This document shows positions 2,648 through 51,455 of a DNA stretch of 64,000 bases, piece by piece; the stretch's first letter is position 1; each line of letters begins with the position of its first letter. The position numbers and the translations under genes were made by a program. The stretch is from a virus, in IMG/VR virus record IMGVR_UViG_3300044998_000296, positions 2,476 through 66,475 of that record; one strand, 5' to 3'. Under the pieces are notes generated by a model. It had not been told where the DNA came from and searched no databases. It saw nothing but the letters and a program-made list of their open reading frames with translations.

Positions 2648-4180
2648 ATGAGCAAACCAACCTTAGATCAGGCTCCCCGGCGCGACGCGCACCTGTCTGC
2701 CGGGGAGAAAATCAGCCAAGCCCTTCGGTGGGTCGGGCGCAAGGAGCCCATTGCGGTTCCGACCGTTCTGACCCGCTGGGAAGTCTTGGAGGACCGCTCC
2801 TGCCCCACTCTCAGCACCAACGGCAAGGTCTTGAAATACAACCCCGACTTCGTGGATCGTCTGAGCTTCAACGCGACCAAGGCCATCGTTCTGCATGAAG
2901 TTGGGCACGTCCTCAGTCAGCACCAACATCGTCGCCAAGGGCGCGACCATCGGGATTACAATATCGCCGCCGATCTGGCTTTGAATTGCCTCTTGAATCG
3001 AGGCTACCGGGCCGCTTTCAACGGAGACTTCGGGGCTCTCTATGCAGAGTTGATTGATCCGTCCGCCTTTGCGTCGGGTTGTTTCGTTGGGGCGGGTTCT
3101 TTTGCGGACCTGCCCCCGAACCTCGACGCGGAAGCCTACTATGAGCTGCTCAAGCAAAAAGCGAGTGAGAAGGAGCAAAACCAAGGACAAAACTTCGGAC
3201 AAAACTTCGGACAAAACTCCGGACAAAACCGAGGCGAAGAAGGCCCGGATTGTAGTGGTGATGGTGGCCGGGACTCTGACCAAGATTGTAGCGGTGAGGG
3301 GCTATACCCCGACCCCGCCCCCGACCAAGTGCCAGACGATGGTCAAGCTTGTGGCGGTAAAGGGCGAGACCGAGGACAAATTTTCGGACAAGGTCACGGT
3401 CCAATCGGCGGGAGTTTCGCTCAACTTTTTGACTGCTCCCCGGCGACCGGGGACATCGAAGACTCACCAACCCCGGAGTCCGAGCATGAAGATGGGCAAT
3501 CCATCCTTCTGGAAACTTTGCTCAACCATGAAGCCGCCGACAAATACAGCCCTCTTGGGCTCGGGGCGATTATTTCGGGAGTCCGCGATCAACTTTTCGG
3601 GGACTACGAACTGGCCGCTGCCATCAACTGGCGGGCCGTGCTTGAAGAGTTTCTGGCCAACGCTCACGCGGGACAACCCAGCTATGAGCGCATCAATCGC
3701 CGCCTGCACAGTCTGGCCGAGTCGCAGGGTATCATCCTTCCGACCGATTACAGTCGCAACAAAACCAACGGTGCGGTGCTGGTTGATACCAGTGGAAGCA
3801 TGGGAGACACGGATTGCGCCCAAGCCTTGGCGCACTTGGGGAAAATCCTCGCCTTGTTTCCCGATTCTACCGTCAACTTGGTCCAGTGCGACACCGAAGT
3901 CCACTGTTCAGAGGAATACACGGGCGGTGATTTTCCTCCGCAGAATTGGGCTGGGTGGTGCGGTCGGGGTGGAACCGACCTTAGCCCGGGCTTCCGTTTC
4001 ATTCGGCAACAGGGGGAATCCTTCGACTGGTGCATCGTCATTACCGACGGGGAGTTCATTCGTGACGGGCTTGTGGACCCCGGAGTTCCAACGCTGTGGG
4101 TTCTAACTCGCCCCGGCTACTGGGCCGACAAACCTTTCCCTTTTGGTCGCGTGGTTTCTATCCGCGCCGCCAAGAATTAA
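2648..4180 (+). CDS. Predicted metallopeptidase + VWA domain protein (DUF2201-like), partner of AAA ATPase
   Basis: HEVGH zincin motif, NIAADLALN, low-complexity linker, VWA MIDAS DTSGSM, GRGGTD and VITDG. Confidence 0.85.
   Translation: MSKPTLDQAPRRDAHLSAGEKISQALRWVGRKEPIAVPTVLTRWEVLEDRSCPTLSTNGKVLKYNPDFVDRLSFNATKAIVLHEVGHVLSQHQHRRQGRDHRDYNIAADLALNCLLNRGYRAAFNGDFGALYAELIDPSAFASGCFVGAGSFADLPPNLDAEAYYELLKQKASEKEQNQGQNFGQNFGQNSGQNRGEEGPDCSGDGGRDSDQDCSGEGLYPDPAPDQVPDDGQACGGKGRDRGQIFGQGHGPIGGSFAQLFDCSPATGDIEDSPTPESEHEDGQSILLETLLNHEAADKYSPLGLGAIISGVRDQLFGDYELAAAINWRAVLEEFLANAHAGQPSYERINRRLHSLAESQGIILPTDYSRNKTNGAVLVDTSGSMGDTDCAQALAHLGKILALFPDSTVNLVQCDTEVHCSEEYTGGDFPPQNWAGWCGRGGTDLSPGFRFIRQQGESFDWCIVITDGEFIRDGLVDPGVPTLWVLTRPGYWADKPFPFGRVVSIRAAKN
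3181..3230 (+). repeat. 12-bp tandem repeat (ggacaaaacttc) encoding GQNF/GQNS
   Basis: About four in-frame units in the linker of the VWA gene. Confidence 0.8.
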
Positions 4181-4931: not shown

Positions 4932-5477
4932 ATGCCCGATTGCACATCTTTCCCAGTTAAGGCCCCGCCCTTCCCCGAGGTTCGTTTGTCGGCTGCGCCC
5001 CTGTTCCCCGGCTACGAGTATTCCTTGTGGCTTCGGTCTGGGGGCCAACCCTACGCTCTTTTTTACGCTCCTGATGGTCGGCGGTTGAATCCGTTGCCCG
5101 GGGGCACGGCTATTCCATGGCCTCCGTATTCCGAGTGTTCTTTGGTTTTACGGAAACGGTTTCGCGGGGCTGCCGACCGAGCCCTAGTTGAACTGCAAAA
5201 ATTATTGAACGCTCAGCGGAGTTCGGTGTCATACCTTCAACCTCACCTTCAACCCCTAATCCCAACTAAAAATATGCCCAATAAACTTTACTTCGACCAC
5301 GAGATAAAAGCCCTGGAACGCGCCCGTTACTGGTCCGCGTTTTTGAGTGGGGCTCTCGTTGCCGCGACTTTGTGCCTGCTGCTGGTGTTTGCTTACGCCT
5401 TCTGCTATGCCACCAAGCAGACGCACCCATTCATCCAAGCCCAGGAGGAGAGCCAAGGGCGGCGCGTTGCTTTTTAA
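4932..5477 (+). CDS. hypothetical protein with C-terminal transmembrane segment
   Basis: aacctATG start; hydrophobic stretch AFLSGALVAATLCLLLVFAYAF; a second start at about 5274 is possible. Confidence 0.45.
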   Translation: MPDCTSFPVKAPPFPEVRLSAAPLFPGYEYSLWLRSGGQPYALFYAPDGRRLNPLPGGTAIPWPPYSECSLVLRKRFRGAADRALVELQKLLNAQRSSVSYLQPHLQPLIPTKNMPNKLYFDHEIKALERARYWSAFLSGALVAATLCLLLVFAYAFCYATKQTHPFIQAQEESQGRRVAF

Positions 5478-5499
5478 CGCGGTCACACCCATAAAACCT

Positions 5500-5700
5500 A
5501 TGAAAAACACAGAACGGGCTGGGATTGGCTCGATGCCAGTATTCTCAGTTATACTTCCCGATGGCCGTAAAATTTGCGGCCTAACTAGGCATGAGGCCGT
5601 AACGGGGTTGGCGTGGCTGCCAACGGGCTCCCGAATTGATCCTCCAATTCCTCCATGTAACCCCGCCGCCCTGAATTTGCTTGACGCACTATGCAAATGA
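5500..5700 (+). CDS. hypothetical protein
   Basis: aaacctATG start typical of this genome. Confidence 0.45.
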   Translation: MKNTERAGIGSMPVFSVILPDGRKICGLTRHEAVTGLAWLPTGSRIDPPIPPCNPAALNLLDALCK

Positions 5701-5732
5701 TAGGACGCCTGCCCAGCTTGCGGAAATACTCC

Positions 5733-5831
5733 GCAGAACGCACAAGTTGACCTATGACTACCGCGCCAACAGACTCCGCAATCACTGAAACCGCCGACGC
5801 GGTGGGCATTAGGTCCAGCGACTTGTTCGCC
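5733..5831 (-). mobile_element. attC-like recombination site A1 (complete)
   Basis: + strand: gcagAAC|gcacaa|gttgacc|tatgactaccgcg ... cgcggtgggcatta|ggtccagc|gactt|GTTcgcc; 7/8-bp L boxes, 6/5-nt spacers, extrahelical bases. Confidence 0.8.
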
Positions 5832-6410
5832 ATTTCTCGGGTGTGGTGTATGCCGTCGCCTCTGACCTTCTCGATGAAGCCAATCCGCGCCTTCGTGGAA
5901 CGCTGGCTCCGTCCGGTGTCGGTGGACTGCTTTGCCCGGGACTGCCAACTGGCAGACATCACGAACGACCTGAACCCCGCGACCAAGGCAATGCACCACA
6001 TGGACGTGCTCGACTTCGCGGAATGGCTGGGCCGCGAAGGAGTCCGCCCGTCCTGCATCTTGTTCGATCCGCCATATAGCCCGCGCCAGGCGGCAGACTG
6101 CTATGAGGCGGCAGGGGTGGACCCGAAAACGCTGGACGCCGTGAAACGCCGGAAGGGAAACGCATGGCAAAGGACTAAGAACTGGAAGGAGGAACGCGAT
6201 GCGTTGGCCCGGATACAAGGGCCGGGTGACGTGGTGCTGTCCTTCGGGTGGGATTCCTGCGGGATGGGCAAGAAGCGCGGATACGAACTGGCGGAGGTGC
6301 TGCTGGTCTGTCACGGAGCCTGCCACAACGATACGATCTGCATTGCGGAAAGGCGCGTTGCAGATATGGCGAACGACCAAGGTCAGCCACGGCGGGAGGA
6401 AAACCTATGA
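5754..6410 (+). CDS. DNA amino-methyltransferase (N6-adenine type), cassette-borne
   Basis: Motif I-like VSVDCFA, catalytic FDPPYS, and C-terminal HG..HNDTI. Starts inside site A1 and stops inside site A2. Confidence 0.8.
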   Translation: MTTAPTDSAITETADAVGIRSSDLFAISRVWCMPSPLTFSMKPIRAFVERWLRPVSVDCFARDCQLADITNDLNPATKAMHHMDVLDFAEWLGREGVRPSCILFDPPYSPRQAADCYEAAGVDPKTLDAVKRRKGNAWQRTKNWKEERDALARIQGPGDVVLSFGWDSCGMGKKRGYELAEVLLVCHGACHNDTICIAERRVADMANDQGQPRREENL

Positions 6411-6459
6411 AAATCAAAAGTGACGCGATCCCGCCGTTGGATGCACCGCCTTGTTCGGA
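6368..6459 (-). mobile_element. attC-like site A2 (complete)
   Basis: ggcgAAC|gaccaa|ggtcagc|cacggcggga ... tcccgccgttg|gatgcacc|gcctt|GTTcgga; loop holds an ATGA stop/start overlap at 6407-6410. Confidence 0.8.
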
Positions 6460-6491
6460 ATCTTCTTCGACGGACCACCGAGGAATCCTTG

Positions 6492-6590
6492 TCGGAAACA
6501 GGGGTCAGGTATCGGCACCCGCAAGCGGTGCGCCCGATTCTAACCCAGCGCGCGGTGCGGGTGACGATTAGCTGGACTGGCTTGTTAGCT
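6492..6590 (-). mobile_element. attC-like site A3 (left end degenerate)
   Basis: ggtcagg|tatcggcacccgca ... tgcgggtgacgatta|gctggact|ggctt|GTTagct; AAC is not at the canonical distance on the left. Confidence 0.65.
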
Positions 6591-6598
6591 GAATTTTT

Positions 6599-6814
6599 AT
6601 GGAAACAACGATGAAACTAAAAATCCGAAAAGGCCAGCGCATGTTGGTCAAATGGCGCGATGACTGCGGAAAAATTCACATCCGGGAAGGGATTGTGGTG
6701 GATTGCGAGCGGGATTTTGTAAAAATCGAACACCGATTTTTCGGAATCCTCCGCTGGAGCAGATGGTATCCTATGAAAGATGATCGCCACAATGCAGAGA
6801 TTATTTTCAGCTAA
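6599..6814 (+). CDS. hypothetical small beta-rich protein, cassette-borne
   Basis: Lies between A3 and A4; its TAA is part of the agcTAAc box. Confidence 0.6.
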   Translation: METTMKLKIRKGQRMLVKWRDDCGKIHIREGIVVDCERDFVKIEHRFFGILRWSRWYPMKDDRHNAEIIFS

Positions 6815-6838
6815 CGTCCGCGATCACGGGCCGCTAGG
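6809..6838 (-). mobile_element. attC-like half-site A4 (left arm only)
   Basis: agctAAC|gtccgc|gatcacg, similar to the left arm at 50286; no partner arm downstream. Confidence 0.55.
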
Positions 6839-6858
6839 AGCGAAGAAAGTATACGAAA

Positions 6859-7152
6859 ATGGATAAGTTCAAATGTCAAGAATGTGGAAAGGTATTCGAT
6901 CCCGACCCCGCTGCAATGGTGGAAGTCGAAATAAGTCCCGACCTCGTGCTCGAAAATGAGGCGGATGAAATGGCGGATGCGGGCAAGTGCCTGACCGAAG
7001 ATGATCTAAGAAACGCGGAGGCCGAACAGCTGCAAGCTTGGGGGCTGAGCGAAAAAGATCGTGACGCAATGCTCAGTGGTGAAGGTGTTGTAATAGGAGG
7101 CATGTGCATATGCTTGGAATGTCAAGATAGGCTCGCGGAGGAACAATCATGA
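6859..7152 (+). CDS. hypothetical acidic protein with two CxxC motifs
   Basis: FKCQECGK ... ICLEC; ends just before site A5. Confidence 0.65.
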   Translation: MDKFKCQECGKVFDPDPAAMVEVEISPDLVLENEADEMADAGKCLTEDDLRNAEAEQLQAWGLSEKDRDAMLSGEGVVIGGMCICLECQDRLAEEQS

Positions 7153-7156
7153 TTTT

Positions 7157-7278
7157 TCCGAACGGCCAAGTCACCGAATCCCGCCCGTGATCGCGCTGCG
7201 CTGCAATGTTGACGGACGAAAAACCCCGCCGGTGCGAGCACGCGGCGGGGCGGGATTCGGTGGACTGGATTGTTGGCC
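7157..7278 (-). mobile_element. attC-like site A5 (complete)
   Basis: tccgAAC|ggcca|agtcacc|gaatcccgccc ... gggcgggattc|ggtggact|ggatt|GTTggcc. Confidence 0.8.
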
Positions 7279-7279
7279 G

Positions 7280-7624
7280 TTACGCTCTATCCGAGCAAAA
7301 TTTGTGGTGCGCGGCAAACGCCCGGCTCCGCTCGACCCATCCTGCAACATATTTGACCGCCGCCGGAGTATTCCCCTGAGCATAACTGTTACCCGAGCGG
7401 GTTTGGCCGTCCTGAATATAAAAAACGACATGGGCAAATTTGGTGCCGCGCTGCCAGACCTGCGAGTAAATCCGGTTAGCGATGCATGTCTCCTCGACCA
7501 TGGTGATTGGCATTTCAGGCCGCCCGCCCAACGCTCCGTTTTTGCGAGCGGCGGCGGCTTTGGCTGGGGTGGTGATGCTGCCGAGCGTGGCGGCAGCCTG
7601 ACTTGTGGTGTTTGTGGTGCTCAT
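7280..7624 (-). CDS. hypothetical protein (K..AAR.NG..GGRP motif), only reverse gene in the array
   Basis: MSTTNTTSQAAATLGSITTPAKAAAARKNGALGGRP; TAA abuts site A5. Confidence 0.65.
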   Translation of the reverse strand: MSTTNTTSQAAATLGSITTPAKAAAARKNGALGGRPEMPITMVEETCIANRIYSQVWQRGTKFAHVVFYIQDGQTRSGNSYAQGNTPAAVKYVAGWVERSRAFAAHHKFCSDRA

Positions 7625-7633
7625 TGCGCAATC

Positions 7634-7661
7634 AAAATAACCCAACGCTGGGATATGTCAA
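7634..7661 (-). promoter_or_regulatory. sigma70-like promoter for the reverse cassette gene
   Basis: TTGACA-16 nt-TATTTT on the - strand, 9 nt before ATG; spacer holds the near-palindrome cccaacgctggg. Confidence 0.55.
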
Positions 7662-7695
7662 CAGAAAAAATGCAGGGGAACAAAATTATTTATTC

Positions 7696-7793
7696 GATCA
7701 ACGCCCAAGGTGAGGCACAGCCTCCCGCCAAAAAGCTATGAACAAACCAAAAGACCTAACGGGAGGCTGTTGTCCTCCACCGATTTGTTCAAA
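7696..7793 (-). mobile_element. attC-like site A6 (complete)
   Basis: gatcAAC|gcccaa|ggtgagg|cacagcctcccg ... cgggaggctgttgt|cctccacc|gattt|GTTcaaa; ATGA in loop at 7738-7741. Confidence 0.8.
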
Positions 7794-8006
7794 GGATTTT
7801 GTGATGCCATTTGGGAAACCACCCACGTAAATGGATACTATCACCCATCTCAGCAACGATGCGTGATCTGCGGAGAATATCGGCACAAGATTTATTGCTC
7901 GCAGTGGCCCCGATGGAGAAAGGGCAAGCACCCTGCAAGCGAAGGCTGCGGGACATATTCTTCTGCGAACGTAAAAGCCACCAGTTCCGCCCCAACTACT
8001 ACTTGA
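7710..8006 (+). CDS. hypothetical Cys-containing protein, possibly degenerate
   Basis: CVICGE motif; runs from A6 into A7. The loop ATG at 7738 is out of frame with it, so the start is uncertain. Confidence 0.4.
   Translation: MRHSLPPKSYEQTKRPNGRLLSSTDLFKGFCDAIWETTHVNGYYHPSQQRCVICGEYRHKIYCSQWPRWRKGKHPASEGCGTYSSANVKATSSAPTTT
7964..7995 (-). mobile_element. attC-like half-site A7 (left arm only)
   Basis: tgcgAAC|gtaaaa|gccacca; upstream ORF reads through AAC as Asn as at other sites; no right arm seen. Confidence 0.45.
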
Positions 8007-8072
8007 ATACTAAAATGGACACAATTAGTAAATCAGACTCGACCGAAACGGAGCGCAAGCAAATTGAGACAT

Positions 8073-8762
8073 TTAACTAAGCGGCGACGGGTTATAAGGA
8101 AAAAGCGAAGGGTCAGTTTTTCTCCAGCACCACTCGGGAAACTCTTCTGCTCCGATCCCTTGTTCCCTTTCAACCAAGTTTAAGGCCTCCTCGGTGATCC
8201 AAACTTTGGTCCGCAAGTTGCATCCGCAACGGTCGCAGCTATGCAATCGGGGATCGGCTGAGGTTTCCAACCCTCCTTGCACGGCTCGGAACAAAGCTCC
8301 CAGTTCTCCACATCCCCAACAGTTGCCGATGGGGACATTGTGGGGACATTGCGAACAGATGGCCGCTCGCCGCTCGGCTTCTTCTCGACTTACGCAAACC
8401 GGGTTCCCCTTGCCCAGTTCCCCGGCAACCACGCGCACCGCTTTCCCAAAATTGATTAAGTCCCTCGGTCCTCGCCGCCAATCGCGCAGGGCCGGGGGAT
8501 TTTTTGCGTCGTCCGCGGACAAGAACTCACAACGTTCGCTGTGCTCCCCCAGTCCTCGTTGTTCCAAGGCTCGGCAGATTTGTTCTTCGACCAAGCGGCG
8601 CAAGTTCGGCGGCACTTCCAGTCCGTTGGCATAGCGATACTGCTCTACTTGGGAGATCAACCCTTTGAACGTAGCCCCCCGAACTATCTGTCCATCTTCC
8701 TGCACAGCTTCCCATCCACGCCTCGGGACTAGCGAAGGGTCTTTGAGTTTCCGCGTGGGCAT
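8073..8762 (-). CDS. Cys-rich hypothetical protein, last gene of late operon
   Basis: RAAICSQCPHN, CWGC, CDRCGCNL...CW motifs. Confidence 0.75.
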   Translation of the reverse strand: MPTRKLKDPSLVPRRGWEAVQEDGQIVRGATFKGLISQVEQYRYANGLEVPPNLRRLVEEQICRALEQRGLGEHSERCEFLSADDAKNPPALRDWRRGPRDLINFGKAVRVVAGELGKGNPVCVSREEAERRAAICSQCPHNVPIGNCWGCGELGALFRAVQGGLETSADPRLHSCDRCGCNLRTKVWITEEALNLVEREQGIGAEEFPEWCWRKTDPSLFPYNPSPLS

Positions 8763-8775
8763 CGGGCGTCAAATT

Positions 8776-11700
8776 TTAGTCCTCTAACGCGGCCTTTTCC
8801 CAGTGCCAGCGGTCTCTGGTTTTGATTGCCCGTGACTTGTTCCCCCGGGACACCCCCATTTCGTCCTCCATTTGGCTCCAGGCAATCTGGGCCGCAGCCG
8901 TGCCAAACTTCCCGAGGATTTCTTTGGCAATCTCGCGTTGCATAGGTCCGTCTTTGGCCAGCTCGGTCAGGTAGCGGACTTGGTCCGGGTCTAAAAATTC
9001 GCGCATGGTCTCGCCGTAGAGTTCATTATAGCGGCGGGTTTCTTCGGGCTTGGCTGGGCGGACCCCCATTCGGGTAGAATCATCCGCGATGACTTCCCGG
9101 CGCGGGGGTGGGACGACCAACCCGGCTTCCGCTAAAGGCCCCAAGATCGGGTGGAAGTTGGTTGTCGAGAAGAACCGTCCGAAGAGAATGTCCTCGGTGC
9201 GAAGTTCCACAGGTTCGGCCAGAACATTGATGGCGGGTTTGTTGGCCAGCATTTGACCCATAGGCAAAGCCGCCATAGTGGCTGCTAAAGGGCCTGAGGT
9301 CGAATCGTAGCGTTGTTTGGAGACTAGCTCTTCGACCATCTTCGTCATCCCCGGGTTGAGGAATGGTCCCACGGCACTTCGGTATTGATTAAGCAGCAAG
9401 CGTCCCCCTTCTTCGGTTTCTCCTTTCGAGTAAGCCGATACGGTTTCCAGCATATTGAACAAGCCGCTCATCATTTCACGGTCCAGCAGCAAGGCCGCCC
9501 CGCTAAGGAAGCCCCCTCCCCAGATTGCCGCCGCCTCGTTGGGTTCGTAATCCCCGTAGAGAACTTTGTCTGAAATAGCCCCGGCAAAGGTCAGGGCCAG
9601 CGAAACCCCTGGAAGGTCCTTGTAAGGAATCCAGACAGCCGAGTCACCGAAACCAATACGGATATGCTGCGGCTTGAAAATCCCGGCTTCGCGCAAGGCT
9701 CGGCGGGTGCGCAGGTCTTGATGGCCTTCCCCGTAAATCCTAATGAAAGGCTCGCGTCCTTCCTCCCGGTCTCGAAAAGCCGCTGCTACCAAGGCCGCCA
9801 AGGCTCCCCATACGGCGGTTCCTGCCGCTGCCCGCACCAAGGCCGCGTAGTATTCCGGGCTGCCCTTTTCGTAGGTCTGGAAGTTCTCGGCAAATTGTTT
9901 GAACCCGGGGAGAGCTTTGGCCAAAGCGGACGATAGGGTTCCTTGGCCTCCCCGCAAAGCCCGGACAAATCCATAAGGGCCGAACTCCAGCCCGTAGTTT
10001 AACAGGTTCGACAGCGTCCGCATGAAGCTTCCATACTGTGCGCCTGCCGGACCCCCGAAGCCGAGAGCCAATTTTCCCCACGACATGGCCAGCAATCCGA
10101 GAACTCCGTAGGCTTCCCCGTTGAAGGTTGCCTTGGCTGCAAAGTCCCGGACCAAGACTTCGTTGGCGTGGCCTCCGAGAAGCTCACGCTCGACGAGTTG
10201 TTCCAAACGGCGGGAGCGCAAGACCCGGTGCGACGGAGTTCCTTTGATTCCAAATTGCCCCTCGGCATCTTCGTTTGCCACTACTTGCTTGGCCTGTTCC
10301 ACGATTGCCGCCATAACCTCCTCGGTTAGTTTGGGCTGCGTCCCGAGAGCCTCGGCAGTTCTGCGAATCAGCAGCATCTTGGTGCTGGCTCCAATCCCGC
10401 TGTTGATCGCGTCGGAAGCCATCATAAAGCGGGCAACCAGCTTGCGTCCGGCCAGGTAATTATCGCGCAACCGGGCCAAGTCTTTTGCCGCCAATGATCC
10501 TTTGCCTTGCAGGGCATGGACCAAAGCCAGCGTAGGATTGCGGAACTTCGACAGCTCGTAGCTTGCGAGCATCTGGACCCCGGCTCCGGCTATGCCCGGT
10601 AATCCTTTAGTCTGCAAAGCATCCATGAAGTTTTCCCCGGCTTGAGCCACGGCGGGTTCAAAGGTGAACGCTTCCAGCTCAGGCAGGGTTTCTAGCTTGT
10701 CGGTCTTAAAGCGAGACATCCCTTTGCCCACTGCCGACCAAGTTTCATCAAAGGCGCGACGGCTTGACCCATCCAAGTTCTTTCCAAAGGCCCGTCTCAG
10801 CCCGCCAACAATGTCCCCGAACGCCCCGTAAGCCTGCGCCCCCGGGACTCCCTGCCGCTGCATATACAAAGCGTGGCCCGCAGCAGAAAAGGCCGACTCC
10901 ATCTGCACTGCGGCAAACGAAGCTATGGCGTTGACCCCTTGAGTGCGGAGCCCCTGCAACACCCCGGCTTGCCAGACCAGCCCACTGATCTTCCACCAGC
11001 GAAACGCTTTGGAGAATCCCTTGGTTTCATCGAAGTGGGCCTTGAAAATTTTGAGCATCAATCGTTGCTCGGCTTCCCCTCGCTGAATCGAATTGTCCGA
11101 GAGAGCTTGCAAAGCCTGCGCGTCTCGCTCGATTTCGTCCGCTGTTTCCTTGTTGTAAGTGGGCAGTCCGTAGAAGGGAGCTAGCGCATTGTAAACGTCG
11201 GGCTTCTGGAAAGCCCCCATGTTGATGATCCCAAGCAGACGGTCCATGGTTTGCCGATGGGCCAAGACCTTGCGAAGCTCGATAGCTTTCTCGTCATTAC
11301 GTTTGGCAATGTCCCGGACCATCCGAGCCAACCCGGCTTCCGCTGCCTTGGAGACTTCATCCCGGTAAACCGCCACGGCAGCCGCAGCAATCTTGTCGCG
11401 TTGTTCTTGGCTGAGATGCGGGGCGGCGATGGCCAGATTGTTGGCAAAACTTTTCTCGGTCATTTCGCGGCTTTGCAAAGAGCGGCGGACTTCCTCCGTC
11501 AAGATCACGTTATGCAGCACGGCCTTGCGCAGTTTCTTGGCTCCTTCGGTATCAAAAATGTAGTCCGGATTCCATAGGCTCCGGTCGTTGACAAAGAGAC
11601 CGCTGTAAGGAGTGTCGGCATCGTTGCCTTCCATCAATACGTGGTCGAAGATGATCTTGGAAATTTCCATGATCGAGTCGGGGGCGGCCTCATCGGCTAC

Positions 11701-14700
11701 CTCGGCCCATAGAGCCAGAGCTTTTTGCATGTCAGACTGGGCAGACCCCTCGGCCTCGGCCCGTGCTTCCACCCGGCCACCTTGCAGCCGGGCTTCCAAG
11801 ACTCCATTGATCTGTCGTTGAGCCAGAGCCCGAGCCCGTTCTTCCACTGATCTCAAGGCGCGTTCTTTGGCGGCGGTATTCGGCACGGCTTCAAATTTAC
11901 GCAGCAGGTTATCGAAGACCTGAGCCACAATGACTTCCGTGGCGTGTTCCACGATTTGCACGTTAGTCATCCCCGCCTTTGCATCGGACAAAGCTTTGGA
12001 CAGGGCCGAGTTGGCTCGCACGCCTCGTTCGCTGGCCGTCTTGGGCAGGAAGCGACGGCTGGCCATTTCGATGACTCGGAGCATCCGCTCGTAAGTATTC
12101 CGGCTACCCGTGTCGTGGGCTCGTTCCAACTCGCCCATGATTTCTTTGACGGCTGGTTTGGCTCCCAGCGTTTCCGCTTGTCCTTTGATGGCCGGGTTCG
12201 TGTATTGCCGTCTCCAAGTGATCGGGTCAAAGAGATGCGAGACCATGCGGACATAGTTTAGCTCACTTCCCGCCATGCTGGACAGTTCGGCAAGCTGCGC
12301 GAGCATGGACGAAAGCGTTTCGTTGTAGAGATCGGCCAACATTTGTGCGCTGGCCCGGTCGGATTGGCTCAAAGAACTATCGGCGGCGTTGGCCAAAGCT
12401 TGAACGCGGCGGCTGGCTTCTTTGACTCGTTTAACGATATGCCCCAACGTAACAACTCGGTCGCCTCCGGTGAAACTGTGCTCCTGCATAGCTGCACGGA
12501 ACAGGGTATCATAGGAGAGGGGATCATCGGACGCCAGGGTTGGGTGAGCCTTGAAGTAGTCTTCGATGTAAGCGGTGGCGCGTTCGTTGATCGCGGCTTG
12601 CGTGTCCGGGATATACTGCACCGTATCCAAAGCTTTGGTGACGGGTTCCCATTCAGGCAGCGAGCGCAGGCGAGAGAACGCCGTGGTATTCTTGGCTGCC
12701 GCCCGATTGTAAAGGGTTGCCGTGGAAGCCGGGAACTGCGCTTGCACGGGTGCGCTGAAACGAATGTCGTTGCTATTCGAGTTAAACCGCTGCGAAAGCG
12801 GGATGACGTTGCCTTGCTCGTCGTAGGTTACAGGGTCGGGCAGTTTAACTCGCACGCTTTCACCGTTCGGTAAGACTGCTGAGACCGATCCTGCATCCTC
12901 GCCTTCGTTGATGTAGAACGCGCCTTTTTTACGCTTAATTTTACGATTTGCAGCATTATCAGAGATCGGGGAATTCCTTGTGTTGGTCATGCCTCCAACA
13001 ATTAGGACAGGACGCAACCAAGGTTTCCATTTAGGATTTACCAATACGCCATTCCCAAGGGTCGGCATTTTCTTTGGATAATAGTTTTCCGATGGAGCAT
13101 CCACGTTGTATCCAGTAAGTCGATATTTTCCAAATTTCCCCGTATTGATCAATTCTTTACCGGCCAGCAAAGTATCCCCATATTCCCGAGTTCCGTCCCA
13201 CCCCCTACCGTCCGCAGGTATTCCAATTCGAGCTTCCAGAGCCTCCATAGCCGCTTGCTTCGTCCCGACATGAAGCCCTGTTACCCCTCCCCGCAAGTCT
13301 CCGCTTGGAGTTCCATGCCAAAATGCGCCGATTGCCGCCAGTTTTTCATCCACCATGCGCTGCAACTCCTCGCGGTTTGCTTCGGGGTCTTTGGCAAGCT
13401 CAAGATAGCGAGCGTCTTGAGAGGTCTTTGCGCTCGCGCTGTATTGTAGAATCGGGGCATCCTTGTCCAAGGTGCGTTGATCGTCCGTAAGCTTGGTGAA
13501 CGCCTCCACCACGGCTTCCCCCGTAATCGCTTCATACAAGGAAGCCTCGTAAGAGTTTGCCAGGACAGGGGGAGCCGAACGGCTGAAACGAATGTCGTTG
13601 CTATCCGAGTTAAACCGCTGCGAAAGCGGGATGACGTTGCCTTGCTCGTCGTAGGTAACAGGATCGGCCAACTTTGCTTGCGATGATTTGAAAAAAACAA
13701 ACACGTCGCTTGGCGTATCATCGTCCATAGCGTCACGAGTGTTTTCCATAATAACTCCATCGTGGCCGCCAGCTATTGCTTCCTGTATTAGCTCTGAATA
13801 GCTTTTATCTTTGAAAGAACCCCCCTCGTAATCGTAAATTAAAGGGTTTTCGAACTTCAAATACAAATCGTGAACCACGCTTGACTTGAGTTTTTCTTGT
13901 CGAGCTTTTTCATATTTGGCAAGAACTTCGTCTAACTGCTTTTGGGCTTCTTCTATTTTGGCATCTTTTTCAGCTTGAGCTGCTTCAAGAGCATCCTCTT
14001 CATCCTCAAACACGGTTTCTTTTTTGCCAGTTTCATAGGGGTCATAGGGATCGGCTTCCCATTCATACGGTGATCCCCATTCATCATACGCTTTCAGTTT
14101 TCCAACAAACCCATTTTGTTCTGGATCAAACTCGGCAAACACTTCAATAGCCTCCGCTAATTCAAGTGCCCTTTCTGCATTTTCTAAGTTAAACCCAAGC
14201 GGACCAGTGTATCCAGCGTTGGCTTTTTCCCTCGCTGTCATACGGTATTGTTCGGCAACCTCTTTTTTGTTGGTTGCAAAAAAACCAAGCAATGCGGAAT
14301 TCGCGCCTGTTCTTTCTCCTTTTCTAAGAGGATCAAAAACCCAAAATGGTTTGTTAGGAGAGCCGTGATATGCTTTTTCAGTGTATCCAGCTCTTTTCGC
14401 CGTCGCATCCACCATGCGCTGCAACTCCTCGCGGTTTGCTTCGGGGTCTTTGGCAAGCTCAAGATAGCGAGCGTCTTTCGGCGTTGCTACGCTCGCGCTG
14501 AGACGAATGTCGTTGCTACCTTCATTTGCCCATTGCGACGGAGGAATCAAGTTGCCGTTCTCGTCGCGGTTAAGCGGCTCGGCGGATTTGATTTGGTTGG
14601 GGTTGAAAACGGCATAGACCGTTGCTGGTCCGCCAAAGTCAAACATATTGGTGAACTTCACAAAGGACTTGCCTTCGCGTTTTGCACGGGAAATCACGCT

Positions 14701-43357: not shown

Positions 43358-44533
43358 GTGAGCACAATACTCGAAAAAATCACCCAAGCTGTCAATGCCC
43401 GCGAAAGCATCACCTTGCGAGTGGGTCGCCAAAAAATCGGCCTTTACTGCGCTGAAAGATCGGGCAACCCCTACTGGACGCTGTCTTGGTATGAAGGAGC
43501 CCAGCGTTGTCGAAAAACGGCGACAGAACCCGCCAAAGCTATCCGCATGACGGAAGCCGTCGCGGAATCTGTGGCCACCGTAGGTCGGGCAACTCCCTCA
43601 GTTTTAGGCCAACCCAGCGAAGTGGCTTCCATCCCGCTAAACGAACTGTTGGAGTTTTACAAAAAGCACCATCCCGATTTGAAGGAAACCTTCAACGCCC
43701 CAACGGTTTCGGAAATCCGAGACGAGTTTCTGTCCGCCGCAAAAAACGCGGGGCGAAGCCAACGCCATCTGCAAAGCCTACGGGCGCATCTCAACAAGTT
43801 TTGCCTAGCCTGCCCCAAGAAAATTTCTCAAATTAGTGTTGAAGATATTAACCCTTTTCTCCAACAATTCGCGGCCCTGAAAACCCGGCTCAATTATCGC
43901 ATCACCCTGATCTCCTTTTTCCGATTTGCTCAAAGACGCGGATTTCTGCCTACTGACCGCTTGACTGCCGCCGAACTTAGCGACAAACCATCCGTGCGCC
44001 CAACCGAGCCCGAAGTGTTTACCTCCGAAGAATTTGCCCGCCTCTTAAAACATTGCGACAACAAAAAAATCCGGGCCTTTTTAGTGTTCGGTGGACTGTG
44101 TGGTCTGCGGTCTGCGGAGATCGCCCGCCTAAGATGGGAAAACGTCCGCGAAGACCACATCATCTTGGGGGCGGCGATAACCAAGACAGCCCGCCGCAGA
44201 GTAGCCGAGATTCCCGGGAACGCGGCGGCTTGGTTGGAGGCTTTGAGGGAAACAAGCGGTCCGGTGTCCTATCTATCCCCAAACCAACTTTACAAAAAAC
44301 TCGACGCATTGGCCGAAGCTGCCGGAGTTTCCTGGAAACCGAACGCTCTGAGACACAGCTTCGCCAGCTACCATTTAGAATTTCACCGGGACCCGCCCCG
44401 GACATCCAAGACAGCGGGACACAGCCTACGAATGTTGGAGACCGTTTACGCGAAATTGGTTTCCCGAAACGACGCCATTGCGTGGTTCTCGATCTTCCCC
44501 ATCCAGCAACAAAATACAAGCCGAAATCTATGA
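43358..44533 (+). CDS. int: tyrosine integrase
   Basis: GLRSAEIARL (R), KT (K), NALRHSFASY, AGHS and VYA catalytic pattern. Confidence 0.9.
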   Translation: MSTILEKITQAVNARESITLRVGRQKIGLYCAERSGNPYWTLSWYEGAQRCRKTATEPAKAIRMTEAVAESVATVGRATPSVLGQPSEVASIPLNELLEFYKKHHPDLKETFNAPTVSEIRDEFLSAAKNAGRSQRHLQSLRAHLNKFCLACPKKISQISVEDINPFLQQFAALKTRLNYRITLISFFRFAQRRGFLPTDRLTAAELSDKPSVRPTEPEVFTSEEFARLLKHCDNKKIRAFLVFGGLCGLRSAEIARLRWENVREDHIILGAAITKTARRRVAEIPGNAAAWLEALRETSGPVSYLSPNQLYKKLDALAEAAGVSWKPNALRHSFASYHLEFHRDPPRTSKTAGHSLRMLETVYAKLVSRNDAIAWFSIFPIQQQNTSRNL

Positions 44534-49153: not shown

Positions 49154-49202
49154 ACCCTTGGGGGTGTGGGGCGTTGCCTCGCACCCCCTTATTTTCACAG
49201 CT

Positions 49203-49931
49203 ATGACTTCTTCAACCGACAGCACTTCAAACATACCAATCGCAAAAAATTCGGAACGCCTCTACCTGGCCGGACCTATGACCGGGAAACCGTTGTTCAA
49301 CTTCCCGGAATTTGACCGAGTCCGCGATCTCTGGAAACTCTTCGGGTGGACCGTTGTATCCCCGGCAGACATGAACCGGGAAAACGGATTTGACCCGTCG
49401 AACCCCTATTTGGAACCCCCAACTCTCACCAAAGAATTTCAGGAAGAAGCCCTGCGGCGGGACGTGGAAGCCCTCCTTGACGTGAACGCCGTGGTCATGC
49501 TGGACGGCTGGCAACACTCCACCGGAGCCCGCGCCGAGTATTGCATCGCTCGCTGGCGTCACATCCCGGTATATGACGAACGGGGGAACTTTATCCCTTC
49601 TCTATTTGACGGCTTGAAACCAGCCAAAGACGACGACGACCCCAAAGCCGTGGAAGGCTCCAAGAAATGCCCCATGGACCTGCTGCCCCCGATTGCCCTC
49701 TTACATACTGCCTGGGTGCTGGGTCACGGAGCCGAGAAATACGGGCCTTGGAACTGGAGAACCAGCGGTATCAAACAAAGCACCTACGTTGCCGCAATGC
49801 TTCGCCACATCATGGCCATGCACAGCGGAGCCTGGGAAGACGCAGATAGCGGCATCCCTCACGCCGCCCACATCGCCGCCTCCTGTGCAATTCTCATGGA
49901 CGCAGAAATCGCCGGAAAATTAGAAAGATGA
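49203..49931 (+). CDS. DUF4406 (nucleoside deoxyribosyltransferase-like) fused to DUF5664 dATP/dGTP diphosphohydrolase-like domain
   Basis: LYLAGPMTG...FNFPEF...LDGWQHSTGARAE; then K.PMDLLP..GAEKYGPWNWR...RH...DSGIPHAAH. Confidence 0.75.
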   Translation: MTSSTDSTSNIPIAKNSERLYLAGPMTGKPLFNFPEFDRVRDLWKLFGWTVVSPADMNRENGFDPSNPYLEPPTLTKEFQEEALRRDVEALLDVNAVVMLDGWQHSTGARAEYCIARWRHIPVYDERGNFIPSLFDGLKPAKDDDDPKAVEGSKKCPMDLLPPIALLHTAWVLGHGAEKYGPWNWRTSGIKQSTYVAAMLRHIMAMHSGAWEDADSGIPHAAHIAASCAILMDAEIAGKLER

Positions 49932-49960
49932 ACAATAAACCAGACGCAATAATAGCAGAG

Positions 49961-49993
49961 GGTGGGGCTGTTCGCTCCAGTGACTTGTTCGGC
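49961..49993 (-). mobile_element. attC-like half-site B1 (right arm only)
   Basis: gctgttc|gctccagt|gactt|GTTcggc; close to the A1 right arm, and both translate RSSDLF. Confidence 0.6.
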
Positions 49994-50111: not shown

Positions 50112-50303
50112 ATGAATCTAAACTACCCACCTGAACACTGGCACATCGGGATGCGTGGGAAGATTGATTACCCCGGAACCTCGCTGCACGGGAAAGAAGC
50201 CATGATTGAAAGGTTCTACAATGGCGAGGTCTTACTCTCATACGATCTAGGAAAAACTACTAGGATTTGGCATAGATGCTTTGTCCCGAAACGTCCGCGA
50301 TGA
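50112..50303 (+). CDS. small hypothetical protein
   Basis: GGAGG RBS; stop falls inside site B2. Confidence 0.55.
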   Translation: MNLNYPPEHWHIGMRGKIDYPGTSLHGKEAMIERFYNGEVLLSYDLGKTTRIWHRCFVPKRPR

Positions 50304-50387
50304 CCGGCAGCTACCCGCTGCATCACGGCCCGAAACCAAATCCGACGAGAACAGCGGGTAGCTGTTCGGTCGATCACTTTGTTCGCA
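50286..50387 (-). mobile_element. attC-like site B2 (complete)
   Basis: ccgaAAC|gtccgc|gatgacc|ggcagctacccgctg ... cagcgggtagctgttc|ggtcgatc|acttt|GTTcgca. Confidence 0.8.
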
Positions 50388-50394
50388 TAATTTT

Positions 50395-50919
50395 ATGATT
50401 GAGATAACAAAATCCGCCACCGCAGACACACGGACCTGCGCCTTTGCCAACACCACCAAGGAAACACTCCTCGCTTCAAGCCGCGCCCACATCAAGGACG
50501 TGGTGAAGGCAATGGCGTTCTTCATCGGAAAGCTCACGGAAGCTGCTGGGGAACACGACTACGACAAGCTGACCTCCATCGACTGGTTCCACGAAGACTT
50601 CGTGACGGGCTTCCAGCAAACTGGATGGTGGGACAACCACCGGAAAATCCATCGCCACCACCTCGCGCAAGACGACGGTGTGCCGGAAGACGTGAACCTG
50701 TTGGACGTGCTCGAATACATCGCCGATTGTGTCATGGCGGGGATGGCCCGCAGCGGGAGTGTCTATGACCTGGTGATGCCGCCCGAGCTTTTGGCACTCG
50801 CATTTAAGAACACGGTCGAACTGCTCAAGTCGGAAGTCATGGTTTCTGCTGCGAACGTCCGTGATGACCGACACCTAGCCGCTGGCGCGGCGGGTGCCAG
50901 CAAGGAGGACAACCAATGA
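50395..50919 (+). CDS. HD-like (DUF5662-like) protein, cassette-borne
   Basis: H..DV, HDYDK, H...RHH, LDVLEYIAD motifs; C-terminus runs through site B3. Confidence 0.65.
   Translation: MIEITKSATADTRTCAFANTTKETLLASSRAHIKDVVKAMAFFIGKLTEAAGEHDYDKLTSIDWFHEDFVTGFQQTGWWDNHRKIHRHHLAQDDGVPEDVNLLDVLEYIADCVMAGMARSGSVYDLVMPPELLALAFKNTVELLKSEVMVSAANVRDDRHLAAGAAGASKEDNQ
50850..50880 (-). mobile_element. attC-like half-site B3 (left arm only)
   Basis: tgcgAAC|gtccgt|gatgacc; tgcgaac is the exact complement of the B2 end gttcgca. Confidence 0.6.
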
Positions 50920-51455
50920 ACCAAAAAACGCAAAAAGATTACGAGAAGGCGTATTATGACGTTGCTGATGCGCTTTGCAGAGAGTCAACAGGGACAGAAG
51001 ATTTGTGCCGACAGGCTAGGCAACTACGCAAAGACCTAGCTGAAGCCCGTCGCATAGCCGAAGCCTACCGATATGTTTGGCAAGTAGTTTCAGCCGCCGT
51101 GGATACATGCCCAAACACCGATCCTCAACCGCTTTGTTTGGCGTTAATGGAGCTACAGGAGGCCATAAATGACTTTTCGACCATACGCAGCGGCCCCGGC
51201 GCATGTAGTGGCTACATTGATGACATGGCCAGGGCAAAAACACGCCTCACGCGGGCAGCAGAGATATTGGCTGACTCGTTATACAAGGCCCAGAAGCGGC
51301 GGGCTCAAGGAGCATCTACCCGCGAAATGATGCACGAGATTTATAATTCGCCGAACGCACAAGCTGACCGACAGCTACATCACGAACGAATGGCCGCTTG
51401 TGGCCAACAGGATCACGCAGAAACCAACTATGAAACAAAACCCTTCACACGTTAA
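50916..51455 (+). CDS. hypothetical helical protein
   Basis: AGGAGG RBS and ATGA overlap; runs through site B4. Confidence 0.6.
   Translation: MNQKTQKDYEKAYYDVADALCRESTGTEDLCRQARQLRKDLAEARRIAEAYRYVWQVVSAAVDTCPNTDPQPLCLALMELQEAINDFSTIRSGPGACSGYIDDMARAKTRLTRAAEILADSLYKAQKRRAQGASTREMMHEIYNSPNAQADRQLHHERMAACGQQDHAETNYETKPFTR
51350..51380 (-). mobile_element. attC-like half-site B4 (left arm only)
   Basis: gccgAAC|gcacaa|gctgacc, nearly identical to the A1 left arm gaac|gcacaa|gttgacc. Confidence 0.6.

Follow-up and report, generated by a model that had tools for sequence, protein, structure and literature searches.

Genes on the bottom-strand side of attC sites in a hot-spring-mat phage: candidate translated joints between inverted integron cassettes

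In bacteria, integrons line up genes that lack promoters of their own behind a single promoter, and each gene is followed by an attC site. What becomes of such sites in a phage is the question raised by a 64,000-nucleotide stretch of virus DNA, hereafter the window, which covers bases 2476 to 66475 of the 66,475-base contig held in IMG/VR as record IMGVR_UViG_3300044998_000296. Eleven sites resembling attC lie there in two clusters (A1 to A7 and B1 to B4), every one of them on the + strand, and reading frames start, stop and continue inside them. A preliminary description of the DNA had proposed that the cassettes are inverted with respect to their sites and that the sites themselves are translated. 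By family, these are attC sites of the kind found in the chromosomal integrons of Verrucomicrobiota, and the window holds two partly decayed clusters of attC sites lacking integron integrases (CALINs) in a temperate phage of a hot-spring mat. Here, as in nine or more further viral contigs, each attC comes before its gene, the genes being on the bottom-strand side.

Our reading of the locus, to which we assign a probability of roughly three in four, is that these are inverted, phage-adapted integron cassettes in which the attC doubles as a translated joint, supplying an Asn frame, a short tail, a stop codon and, often, the next start codon. An upstream gene without a stop codon of its own would pass the AAC of the site as Asn and terminate 6 to 60 nucleotides (nt) into the site; in many cases this stop would be the TGA within an ATGA, the ATG of the same four letters starting the next gene, and the loop and right arm would encode the first 15 to 25 residues of the next protein. 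Exchange would occur at AA/C (the slash marking the crossover), catalyzed by an IntI that the host or a related phage supplies. Swapping the downstream unit would then keep the frame, supply a stop and preserve the stop-start coupling in a polycistronic operon, and would alter the C-terminal tail only.

Sites of the attC family in two clusters

The site coordinates of the preliminary description all proved correct on re-reading of the sequence. Five sites are complete, one has a degenerate left arm, four are reduced to the left side and one to the right side. They are listed here with the position of the left-arm AAC and the right-arm GTT, together with scores for single-arm matrices or for a covariance model, R1, described below.

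5733..5831, + strand: A1, complete attC-type site; AAC 5737, GTT 5825; ATGA 5754-5757; R1 42.7 bits, E 2.3e-10, full length
6368..6459, + strand: A2, complete attC-type site; AAC 6372, GTT 6453; ATGA 6407-6410 in the loop; R1 49.9 bits, E 1.8e-12
6497..6590, + strand: A3, good right arm and degenerate left arm; GTT 6584; right-arm matrix 29.7
6809..6842, + strand: A4, left arm only; AAC 6813; left-arm matrix 19.5; no hairpin
7157..7278, + strand: A5, complete attC-type site; AAC 7161, GTT 7272; R1 22.4 bits, E 1.9e-4
7696..7793, + strand: A6, complete attC-type site; AAC 7700, GTT 7787; ATGA 7738-7741; R1 27.8 bits, E 5.1e-6
7964..7995, + strand: A7, left arm only; AAC 7968; left-arm matrix 16.4; no hairpin
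49929..49993, + strand: B1, ATGA junction, loop and right arm only; GTT 49987; right-arm matrix 32.0; no hairpin
50285..50387, + strand: B2, complete attC-type site; AAC 50290, GTT 50381; R1 22.9 bits, E 1.3e-4; fold z -3.69
50850..50919, + strand: B3, left arm, loop and ATGA 50916-50919, without right arm; AAC 50854; left-arm matrix 26.4; no hairpin
51350..51385, + strand: B4, left arm only; AAC 51354; left-arm matrix 27.7

The assignment to the attC family rests first on R1, a model built solely from 13 host sites in three metagenome-assembled genomes (MAGs). Its structure has R and L boxes of 7 bp each, the L box bearing one additional base, and another stem that bears an additional T; of the 19 pairs, 9 vary on both sides, a level of covariation matched by none of 500 shuffles. 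Applied to the window, R1 finds exactly A2, A1, A6, B2 and A5, each at full length and on the + strand, at 22.4 to 49.9 bits (E 1.8e-12 to 1.9e-4). An IUPAC pattern of both arms, which fits A1, A2 and A5, has these 3 matches in the window and 0 in 100 shuffles of it, and a position-weight scan of both strands of the whole 66.5-kb record gave no additional site scoring above the best shuffle. The arms were aligned by anchoring; a MAFFT alignment of the phage sites put A5 wrongly. All five hairpin-forming sites are imperfect palindromes with an outer AAC...GTT, and their inner stems differ in sequence and all pair. That of A5 is perfect over 15 bp (fold -35.7 kcal/mol, z -3.85), and this site sits between convergent genes. 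A3 folds at -23.4 kcal/mol (z -2.24), and R1 gives no match to it.

Searched in one genome per prokaryote species, the two-arm pattern found 12 loci, 9 of which are labelled as Verrucomicrobiota MAGs. In the Verrucomicrobiae MAG G001 (contig C7), the phage right-arm matrix reveals 130 sites over 79 kb, on a single strand and with a median spacing of 566 bp. This array stops 1.6 kb short of an intI (TIGR02249, 417.9 bits; one in-frame TAG), and a second, intact intI is located on a different contig. The region as a whole (G001:C7:1164580-1246167; loci L028, L010 and L029-L032), from an uncultured bacterium, is a chromosomal integron of very large size; its near-identical attC sites number at least 130, and it may extend further to the left. 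In a Verrucomicrobia MAG contig (L011), well-scoring left and right arms stand at 3560 and 4663, about 1.1 kb apart, and may be half sites or one site split by an insertion.

In its published description, the bottom strand of attC carries 5'-RYYYAAC at its 5' end and GTTRRRY at its 3' end, with an extra-helical G16 and T23/24 near L'' (Nivina et al., 2016). The R boxes of the phage read (S)CGAAC / GTTCGSC against this RYYYAAC / GTTRRRY consensus, and a purine follows GTT only in A3 (GTTAGCT) and A5 (GTTGGCC); the same variant is found in the host array of G001, with GTTCGGC in 45/130 sites. By manual reading of the five complete sites and the right arms of A3 and B1, the first extra base lies 16 nt in from the 3' end and the extra T at about position 22-23, and the R1 alignments agree. 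The first extra base is a C in A1, A2 and A6 and the textbook G in A5 and B2.

A further signature of cassettes, both ends of which stem from a single R box, lies in the R-box halves: the 4 nt after a GTT and the 4 nt before the next AAC are complementary, and perfectly so at 116/127 junctions of the G001 host array. In phage arrays 15 of 29 such pairs are perfect, against 12 of 83 when a half is paired with its own, the previous or the next-but-one partner (p = 2e-4). Within the window, the halves match in all four positions for the unit from A1 to A2, which carries a DNA methyltransferase (MTase) gene (CGCC/GGCG), for that from A3 to A4, with a gene of 71 amino acids (aa) (AGCT/AGCT), and for that from B2 to B3, with the gene of a protein here called 'HD' (CGCA/TGCG). 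The matched halves were rejected as a means of telling which attC moves along with a gene, both models predicting the same pairing.

Four R1 matches inside 5733-7793, with no IntI, make cluster A a CALIN; cluster B has one intact site only. By tblastn, the open reading frames (ORFs) of the phage and the fetched host arrays have no cassette genes in common.

Orientation of the genes and translation through the sites

The + strand of the phage sites has the layout of the bottom, recombinogenic strand of attC: the left half consists of 5'-AAC, a spacer and the 7-nt L box, and the right half of the 8-nt L box with its extra base, the extra T, a spacer and GTT. The view that most genes here run opposite to those of ordinary cassettes is borne out by comparison with arrays that adjoin an intI in a host genome and in a phage. 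In the host genome G001, the site strand is the intI strand, the array lies on the 5' side of intI, and the longest ORF runs opposite to the site strand in 114/129 cassettes, which is the textbook arrangement. The phage, G006, is the 31.7-kb IMG/VR contig of locus L056, with helicase, primase, large terminase, portal and major head protein genes on one strand. It carries a true IntI (329.8 bits, above the curated cut-off; 48% identical to a G001 IntI), and immediately upstream of this intI, and on its strand, are ten R1 sites; the site strand that faces intI is identical in the G001 array and in G006. Between the sites of G006, ORFs tile the site strand, each ending inside a site, and include an MTase gene and an HD gene. 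An intI beside the array, the mark of a complete integron, is thus present in G006 and absent from the phage of the window. Another phage, G012, which is complete with terminal repeats, has three such sites and no IntI.

Nine phage genes supported by homology lie on the site strand, namely the MTase and HD genes of the window, the MTase and HD genes of L056, two MTase genes of L116, those of L120 and L038, and a Mom-like gene of L119. Because these genes are on the site strand and host cassette ORFs on the opposite one, the word 'inverted' is correct; the usual layout of a gene on the top strand with attC downstream is not that of the MTase and HD genes of the window. The genes associated with the two clusters are as follows.

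5754..6410, + strand: DNA methyltransferase (MTase), 218 aa; phrog_11619 match, E 3.4e-35, residues 35-206
6599..6814, + strand: small gene, 71 aa; its TAA stop is a T plus the AA of the A4 AAC (GCTAAC)
7283..7627, - strand: opposite-strand gene; homologues P0122-P0124; A5 downstream
7710..8006, + strand: putative ORF, 98 aa; reads the A7 AAC as Asn (SANVKA)
50395..50919, + strand: 'HD' protein gene; a 21-aa tail from Asn154 (AAC 50854) follows a conserved core of about 150 aa; 3688 homologues
50916..51455, + strand: 179-aa gene; the B4 AAC is Asn147 (SPNAQA); homologue P0127

The MTase gene displays the proposed joint at both of its ends. Its ATG at 5754 does lie inside A1, in the left arm, and A1 encodes residues 1-26; A2 encodes the final 12 residues and the stop, the AAC of A2 being Asn207 and the stop being the TGA of the loop ATGA at 6407-6410. 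An in-frame Asn at the AAC was likewise confirmed in all four peptides for which it had been claimed (MANDQG, SANVKA, AANVRD and SPNAQA), and the right arms translate in one frame as RSSDLF (A1, B1) and SSTDLF (A6). The HD gene stops at the ATGA of 50916-50919, where the 179-aa gene starts. Overlaps of stop and start had been described at 6407-6410, 7738-7741 and 50916-50919: the ATGA is present at all three, and the case in A6 depends on an ORF (7187..7741) that is probably spurious, since it overlaps the homology-supported gene 7283-7627 on the - strand. An ORF of 54 aa starting in A2 is also doubtful because A2 and A3 stand nearly in tandem, and is probably not a gene. A4 and B2 are entered in another frame (xAA/C), and the ORF before A5 terminates 8 nt upstream of the site. 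Codon-position GC content separates the MTase gene from its antisense ORF and gives no clear separation for ORFs below 100 aa (54, 98 and 35 aa). The preliminary description had each unit carry its site upstream, often with the translation start. The MTase fits this scheme, its start being inside A1; several other starts lie outside the sites, that of HD 8 nt past B2 and that of the 71-aa gene (ATG at 6599) past A3. Sites that have lost an arm retain the ATGA junction, as in B1 (ATGA, loop and right arm) and B3 (left arm, loop and ATGA). The gene that ends at the ATGA junction of B1 (49158-49931) resembles a fusion of two halves, one nucleoside 2-deoxyribosyltransferase-like and the other MazG/dNTP-pyrophosphohydrolase-like.

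The same design recurs in other viral contigs. The HD protein led to 80 viral loci, 5 of which have R1 sites (18 sites, all on the HD strand), and the two-arm pattern added 8 more viral loci, likewise with R1 sites; removal of duplicates (L114 is in part L119; L118 is L117) left 36 unique sites in 11 other viral contigs. At least 150 nt are open upstream of 32 of the 36 sites, and the AAC is in the Asn frame at 30 of these and in frame 1 at 2 (binomial p ~1e-12), a count that uses open-frame length, not annotated genes, and that includes sites of the same array, which are not fully independent. The frame of the AAC, which the preliminary description had proposed to tabulate, is therefore non-random across phage sites, and the Asn frame is in the majority in 9/9 contigs. 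In the bacterial array of G001, the three frames occur 51:45:32 and the median open stretch upstream is 90 nt. ATGA is the first in-frame stop at 17/36 viral sites versus 2/150 bacterial ones (1/22 at other MAG loci and 1/128 in G001). A Shine-Dalgarno-like motif lies upstream of only 4/19 ATGA starts, which fits restart after termination and is equally expected of a host with weak Shine-Dalgarno use. Genes with start codons inside sites include four DNA methyltransferases and one Mom-like protein, and their family homology begins at residues 13-30, past the site-encoded leader; the ORFs opened by start codons within sites are, on this sequence evidence, real genes. A two-arm pattern of the A1 type had a single match in viral contigs (L007), which was taken as a chance hit, lying inside unrelated recombinase-like genes and forming no hairpin. 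The L037 sites at 2653-2781 and 3264-3392 have identical values in the frame analysis, as though one site-plus-gene unit had been duplicated in tandem.

It may be asked whether the sites are nothing but leftovers of captured host cassettes undergoing passive decay, and the gene overlaps mere genome compaction. The record carries no IntI and six of its eleven sites are incomplete; moreover, capture of cassettes outside att sites has been described (bioRxiv 10.1101/2022.09.11.507474), and CALINs have already been reported in phages (Qi et al., 2023, PMC9892861). Compaction, however, predicts neither a single frame at 30/32 sites nor the excess of ATGA in viral over bacterial sites (17/36 versus 2/150). 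What B1 and B3 keep, each without one of its arms, is precisely the ATGA junction, and no phage ORF matched the fetched host arrays. Passive decay alone thus appears an unlikely account of these arrays.

Homology borders and exchange of units

If units are exchanged at the AAC, similarity between homologues should stop there, and the preliminary description predicted as much for both the MTase and the HD protein. For the MTase, the phrog_11619 match stops with residue 206, one short of the Asn at 207. Its sole relative found in IMG/VR (L004) is at a locus without sites and lacks both ends, with a C-terminus ...ICIAERKPI followed by the stop and a different N-terminus; an R1 search of L004-L006 returned zero matches. 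For the HD protein, nucleotide identity to L033 and L035 is 86% over 50392-50856 only, the match ending exactly at the AAC, and the alignments read ...GATGCGAAC and then continue into three different sequences. The neighbors within 4 kb have nothing in common except for a helicase in L035, with 34% protein identity. HD homologues are typically 151-157 aa long, and 13 of the 27 that were aligned (27 of 120 listed, with unusual lengths over-sampled) share an Asn at that alignment column, after which their tails are unrelated. Among the 80 HD viral loci, the Asn tail occurs in L033, L034, L035, L037 and L056, of which four carry R1 sites; L034 is the L033 sequence, ended by the contig end. Similarity of the 179-aa protein to P0127 also ends at ...PN. 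The first 76 residues of the same protein (50916-51143) are 93% identical to P0126 and then diverge, a mosaic joint in mid-gene, away from the sites. The HD core itself (50395-50853), which has a weak, sub-threshold match to DUF5662, is conserved to an unusual degree, and many of its homologues, at 75-89% identity, are found in phages that otherwise share almost nothing.

Borders are also seen around whole sites. A1 recurs at about 94% identity in L119 and L113, and on neither side of it are the flanks related; the L119 protein and the window MTase have their first 24 residues in common (MTTAPTDSA.TETADAVGIRSS.LF) and nothing after. Logan contigs of four runs, assigned to at most one sample, which is possibly the source of the window itself, match only A1 (5736-5829), A2 (6369-6456), A3 (6504-6596) or A6 (7706-7777), at about 88-98% identity; copies of A1 show about 90% identity, and most of the matching contigs run on into other flanks. 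One Logan contig joins 5829, where A1 ends on the right, to 7159, where A5 begins on the left; its shorter side has only 32 letters, and no conclusion is drawn from it. In L033, L035 and L037, the order is site, HD gene, AAC and unrelated DNA, with no R1 match after the AAC. Because this layout would result from the insertion of a single site-plus-gene unit outside attC, a unit with its site upstream is favored.

These borders bear on a second explanation, in which the conserved arms are short homology linkers through which general phage recombination swaps modules without IntI, a scheme akin to the promoter/stem-loop cassettes of T4-type phages. Mosaic borders at both ends of sites, the existence of half sites, and an exonuclease gene (phrog_284) in a phage that has no IntI speak in its favor, as does a 36-residue leader joined to different proteins on the - strand too. 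This leader (MSTTNTTSQAAATLGSITT..AKA.AAR.NG..GGRP), encoded in the window at 7513-7627 (- strand) and found in P0123 and P0124, precedes three unrelated bodies in different contigs, and the body of the protein encoded at 7283-7627 recurs in P0122 with another N-terminus, a case of modular shuffling of proteins on the - strand. Homologous exchange in the arms, however, would yield hybrid sites, not borders lying exactly at the AAC; the matched R-box halves (15/29 in phages, 116/127 in the host) mark a crossover inside the R box; and a related phage has an IntI adjoining its array. We regard linkers of this kind as quite improbable drivers of the exchange.

The hairpins could, in a third explanation, act chiefly in mRNA, in processing, stability or translation control, and their likeness to attC would then be inherited and irrelevant. 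All sites lie on the coding strand at gene junctions, A5 between convergent genes is terminator-like, and the expression of integron arrays depends on translation of upstream cassettes (Carvalho et al., 2024). Yet Rfam gave no match for the region at E up to 5 except for a chance snoRNA, and none for the window at the gathering score, and a role in mRNA leaves unexplained the matched R-box halves, the family shared with arrays adjoining intI and the breaks of homology at the AAC. As the chief function of the sites it is very improbable; as an additional one, it is compatible with a translated recombination joint and not opposed to it.

Several observations weigh against our own reading of the sites as translated joints between exchangeable cassettes. 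There is no IntI in the whole record (best TIGR02249 score 21.7 bits, cut-off 265). The R boxes (CGAAC/GTTCG) and the first extra base deviate from the textbook, although both deviations are common to the host arrays. The gene at 7283-7627 is the sole cassette of the window in the ordinary bacterial orientation. Of six junctions in the window, three have perfect R-box halves and three do not. Six of the 11 sites cannot form full hairpins, and most junctions in this phage therefore cannot now recombine; its arrays look like largely fixed remnants. In vivo translation of the sites, coupling as a selected function and IntI-driven exchange are things that we infer, translation and coupling from the DNA sequence alone, and the frame counts are subject to the limits given with them.

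The borders themselves provide the remaining objections. The HD gene keeps GTTCGCAT upstream while the rest of its upstream site differs, the HD-upstream sites of four phages have only ...TTGTTCGCAT in common, and A1 is kept while the gene downstream of it changes. The preliminary description had counted a crossover at the right-hand GTT against its own scheme; borders at the AAC are indeed found, but borders also occur at the right-hand end of the site, which speaks against a single crossover point. Since a site and its right-hand neighbor gene stay joined in a single crossover at AA/C, these right-end borders need something else, and homogeneous attC sites as in chromosomal arrays, occasional top-strand recombination and homologous exchange in the conserved arms are the candidates.

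The phage and its relation to known systems

The record has a completeness of 90% (CheckV), and the labels of the public runs that contain it are those of hot-spring or microbial-mat metagenomes. Cluster A lies at the end of a + strand operon, downstream of an ATPase gene and an HNH-like gene, and cluster B lies within the replication module, directly upstream of the DNA polymerase. The phage has a tyrosine integrase of its own, which is not an integron integrase:

43358..44533, + strand: tyrosine integrase of the phage; PF00589, 43.4 bits; TIGR02249, 21.7 bits against a cut-off of 265; phrog_1 match

A blastn search of 5400-8400 against 50,697 isolated-phage records found no match, the DNA polymerase has among isolated phages only relatives at 25% identity or less and in IMG/VR two loci at 26-28% identity, and no relatives of a 229-aa protein turned up in IMG/VR. 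PHROGs and Pfam returned nothing for most of the small cassette ORFs. Directly after cluster A, a single ORF of 4502 aa (8776-22284, - strand) presumably encodes a giant virion protein or an injected multi-domain protein.

All identifiable cargo of the arrays consists of DNA-modification genes (methyltransferases and Mom-like), except for the uncharacterised HD protein, and may be the phage equivalent of the defence genes that bacterial integrons store. A wider view, on which we consider the odds about even, is that a phage lineage, probably of Verrucomicrobiota, has its own version of the integron, with attC inside reading frames as a translated, fixed-frame connector made up of an Asn codon, a short tail and an ATGA stop/start; IntI, encoded by the phage as in G006 or borrowed from the host, would shuffle DNA-modification and other counter-defence genes in a translationally coupled operon while expression is kept, and the sites would have evolved a second function, as coding sequence, that is absent from bacterial attC of the same family. 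These proposals are testable: the sites and their strand are defined, as are the crossover point and a candidate integrase encoded by a phage.

CALINs and integrons with methyltransferase cargo have already been reported in phage genomes, their cassettes being described as oriented in the way that bacterial arrays usually are (Qi et al., 2023, PMC9892861). Like the window, these phage CALINs combine attC sites, cassette-sized units and MTase cargo, mostly with no adjoining integrase. Unlike the window, they are not known from that study to have bottom-strand-side genes, an in-frame AAC or overlapping stop and start codons within attC, a point on which its supplement, listing 17 CALINs, may bear. 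Among the titles and abstracts that literature searches returned, none deals with bottom-strand-side genes, an in-frame AAC or stop/start overlaps within attC in phages.

The closest comparisons are with the arrays described above. The G001 integron resembles the window in its attC family, the positions of the extra bases, the orientation of the sites to intI, the size of its cassettes (median 566 bp) and its matched R-box halves, and differs from it in having 114/129 ORFs on the other strand, a random AAC frame (51:45:32) and ATGA as first stop at 1/128 sites. G006 shares with the window the inverted arrangement, an HD cassette, an MTase cassette and ORFs ending in sites, in all 10 of its sites; unlike the phage of the window, it has a true IntI directly after the array, on the same strand as the cassette genes. 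In Treponema denticola, the integron reportedly has an inverted intI, the integrase and cassette genes pointing the same way and only intI being flipped. The genes of that integron are thus said to keep their usual relation to attC, whereas in the window the genes are flipped with respect to attC and the sites keep their usual relation to intI.

In T4-type phages, repeated elements known as mobile promoter/stem-loop cassettes (PeSLs) flank small, variable early genes; they are regulatory, and shuffling of modules through homologous recombination between them has been proposed. The sites of the window differ in belonging to a site-specific recombination family, in having an identified integrase in relatives and in being predicted to be translated. 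If the design works as inferred, cassettes could be exchanged inside packed, co-translated phage operons and still be expressed, with attC serving both as a translated linker and as a recombination site. The phages carry the same recombination sites as bacterial integrons in the reverse relation to genes and inside coding sequence, with a frame rule and a stop/start joint that are absent from bacterial sites.

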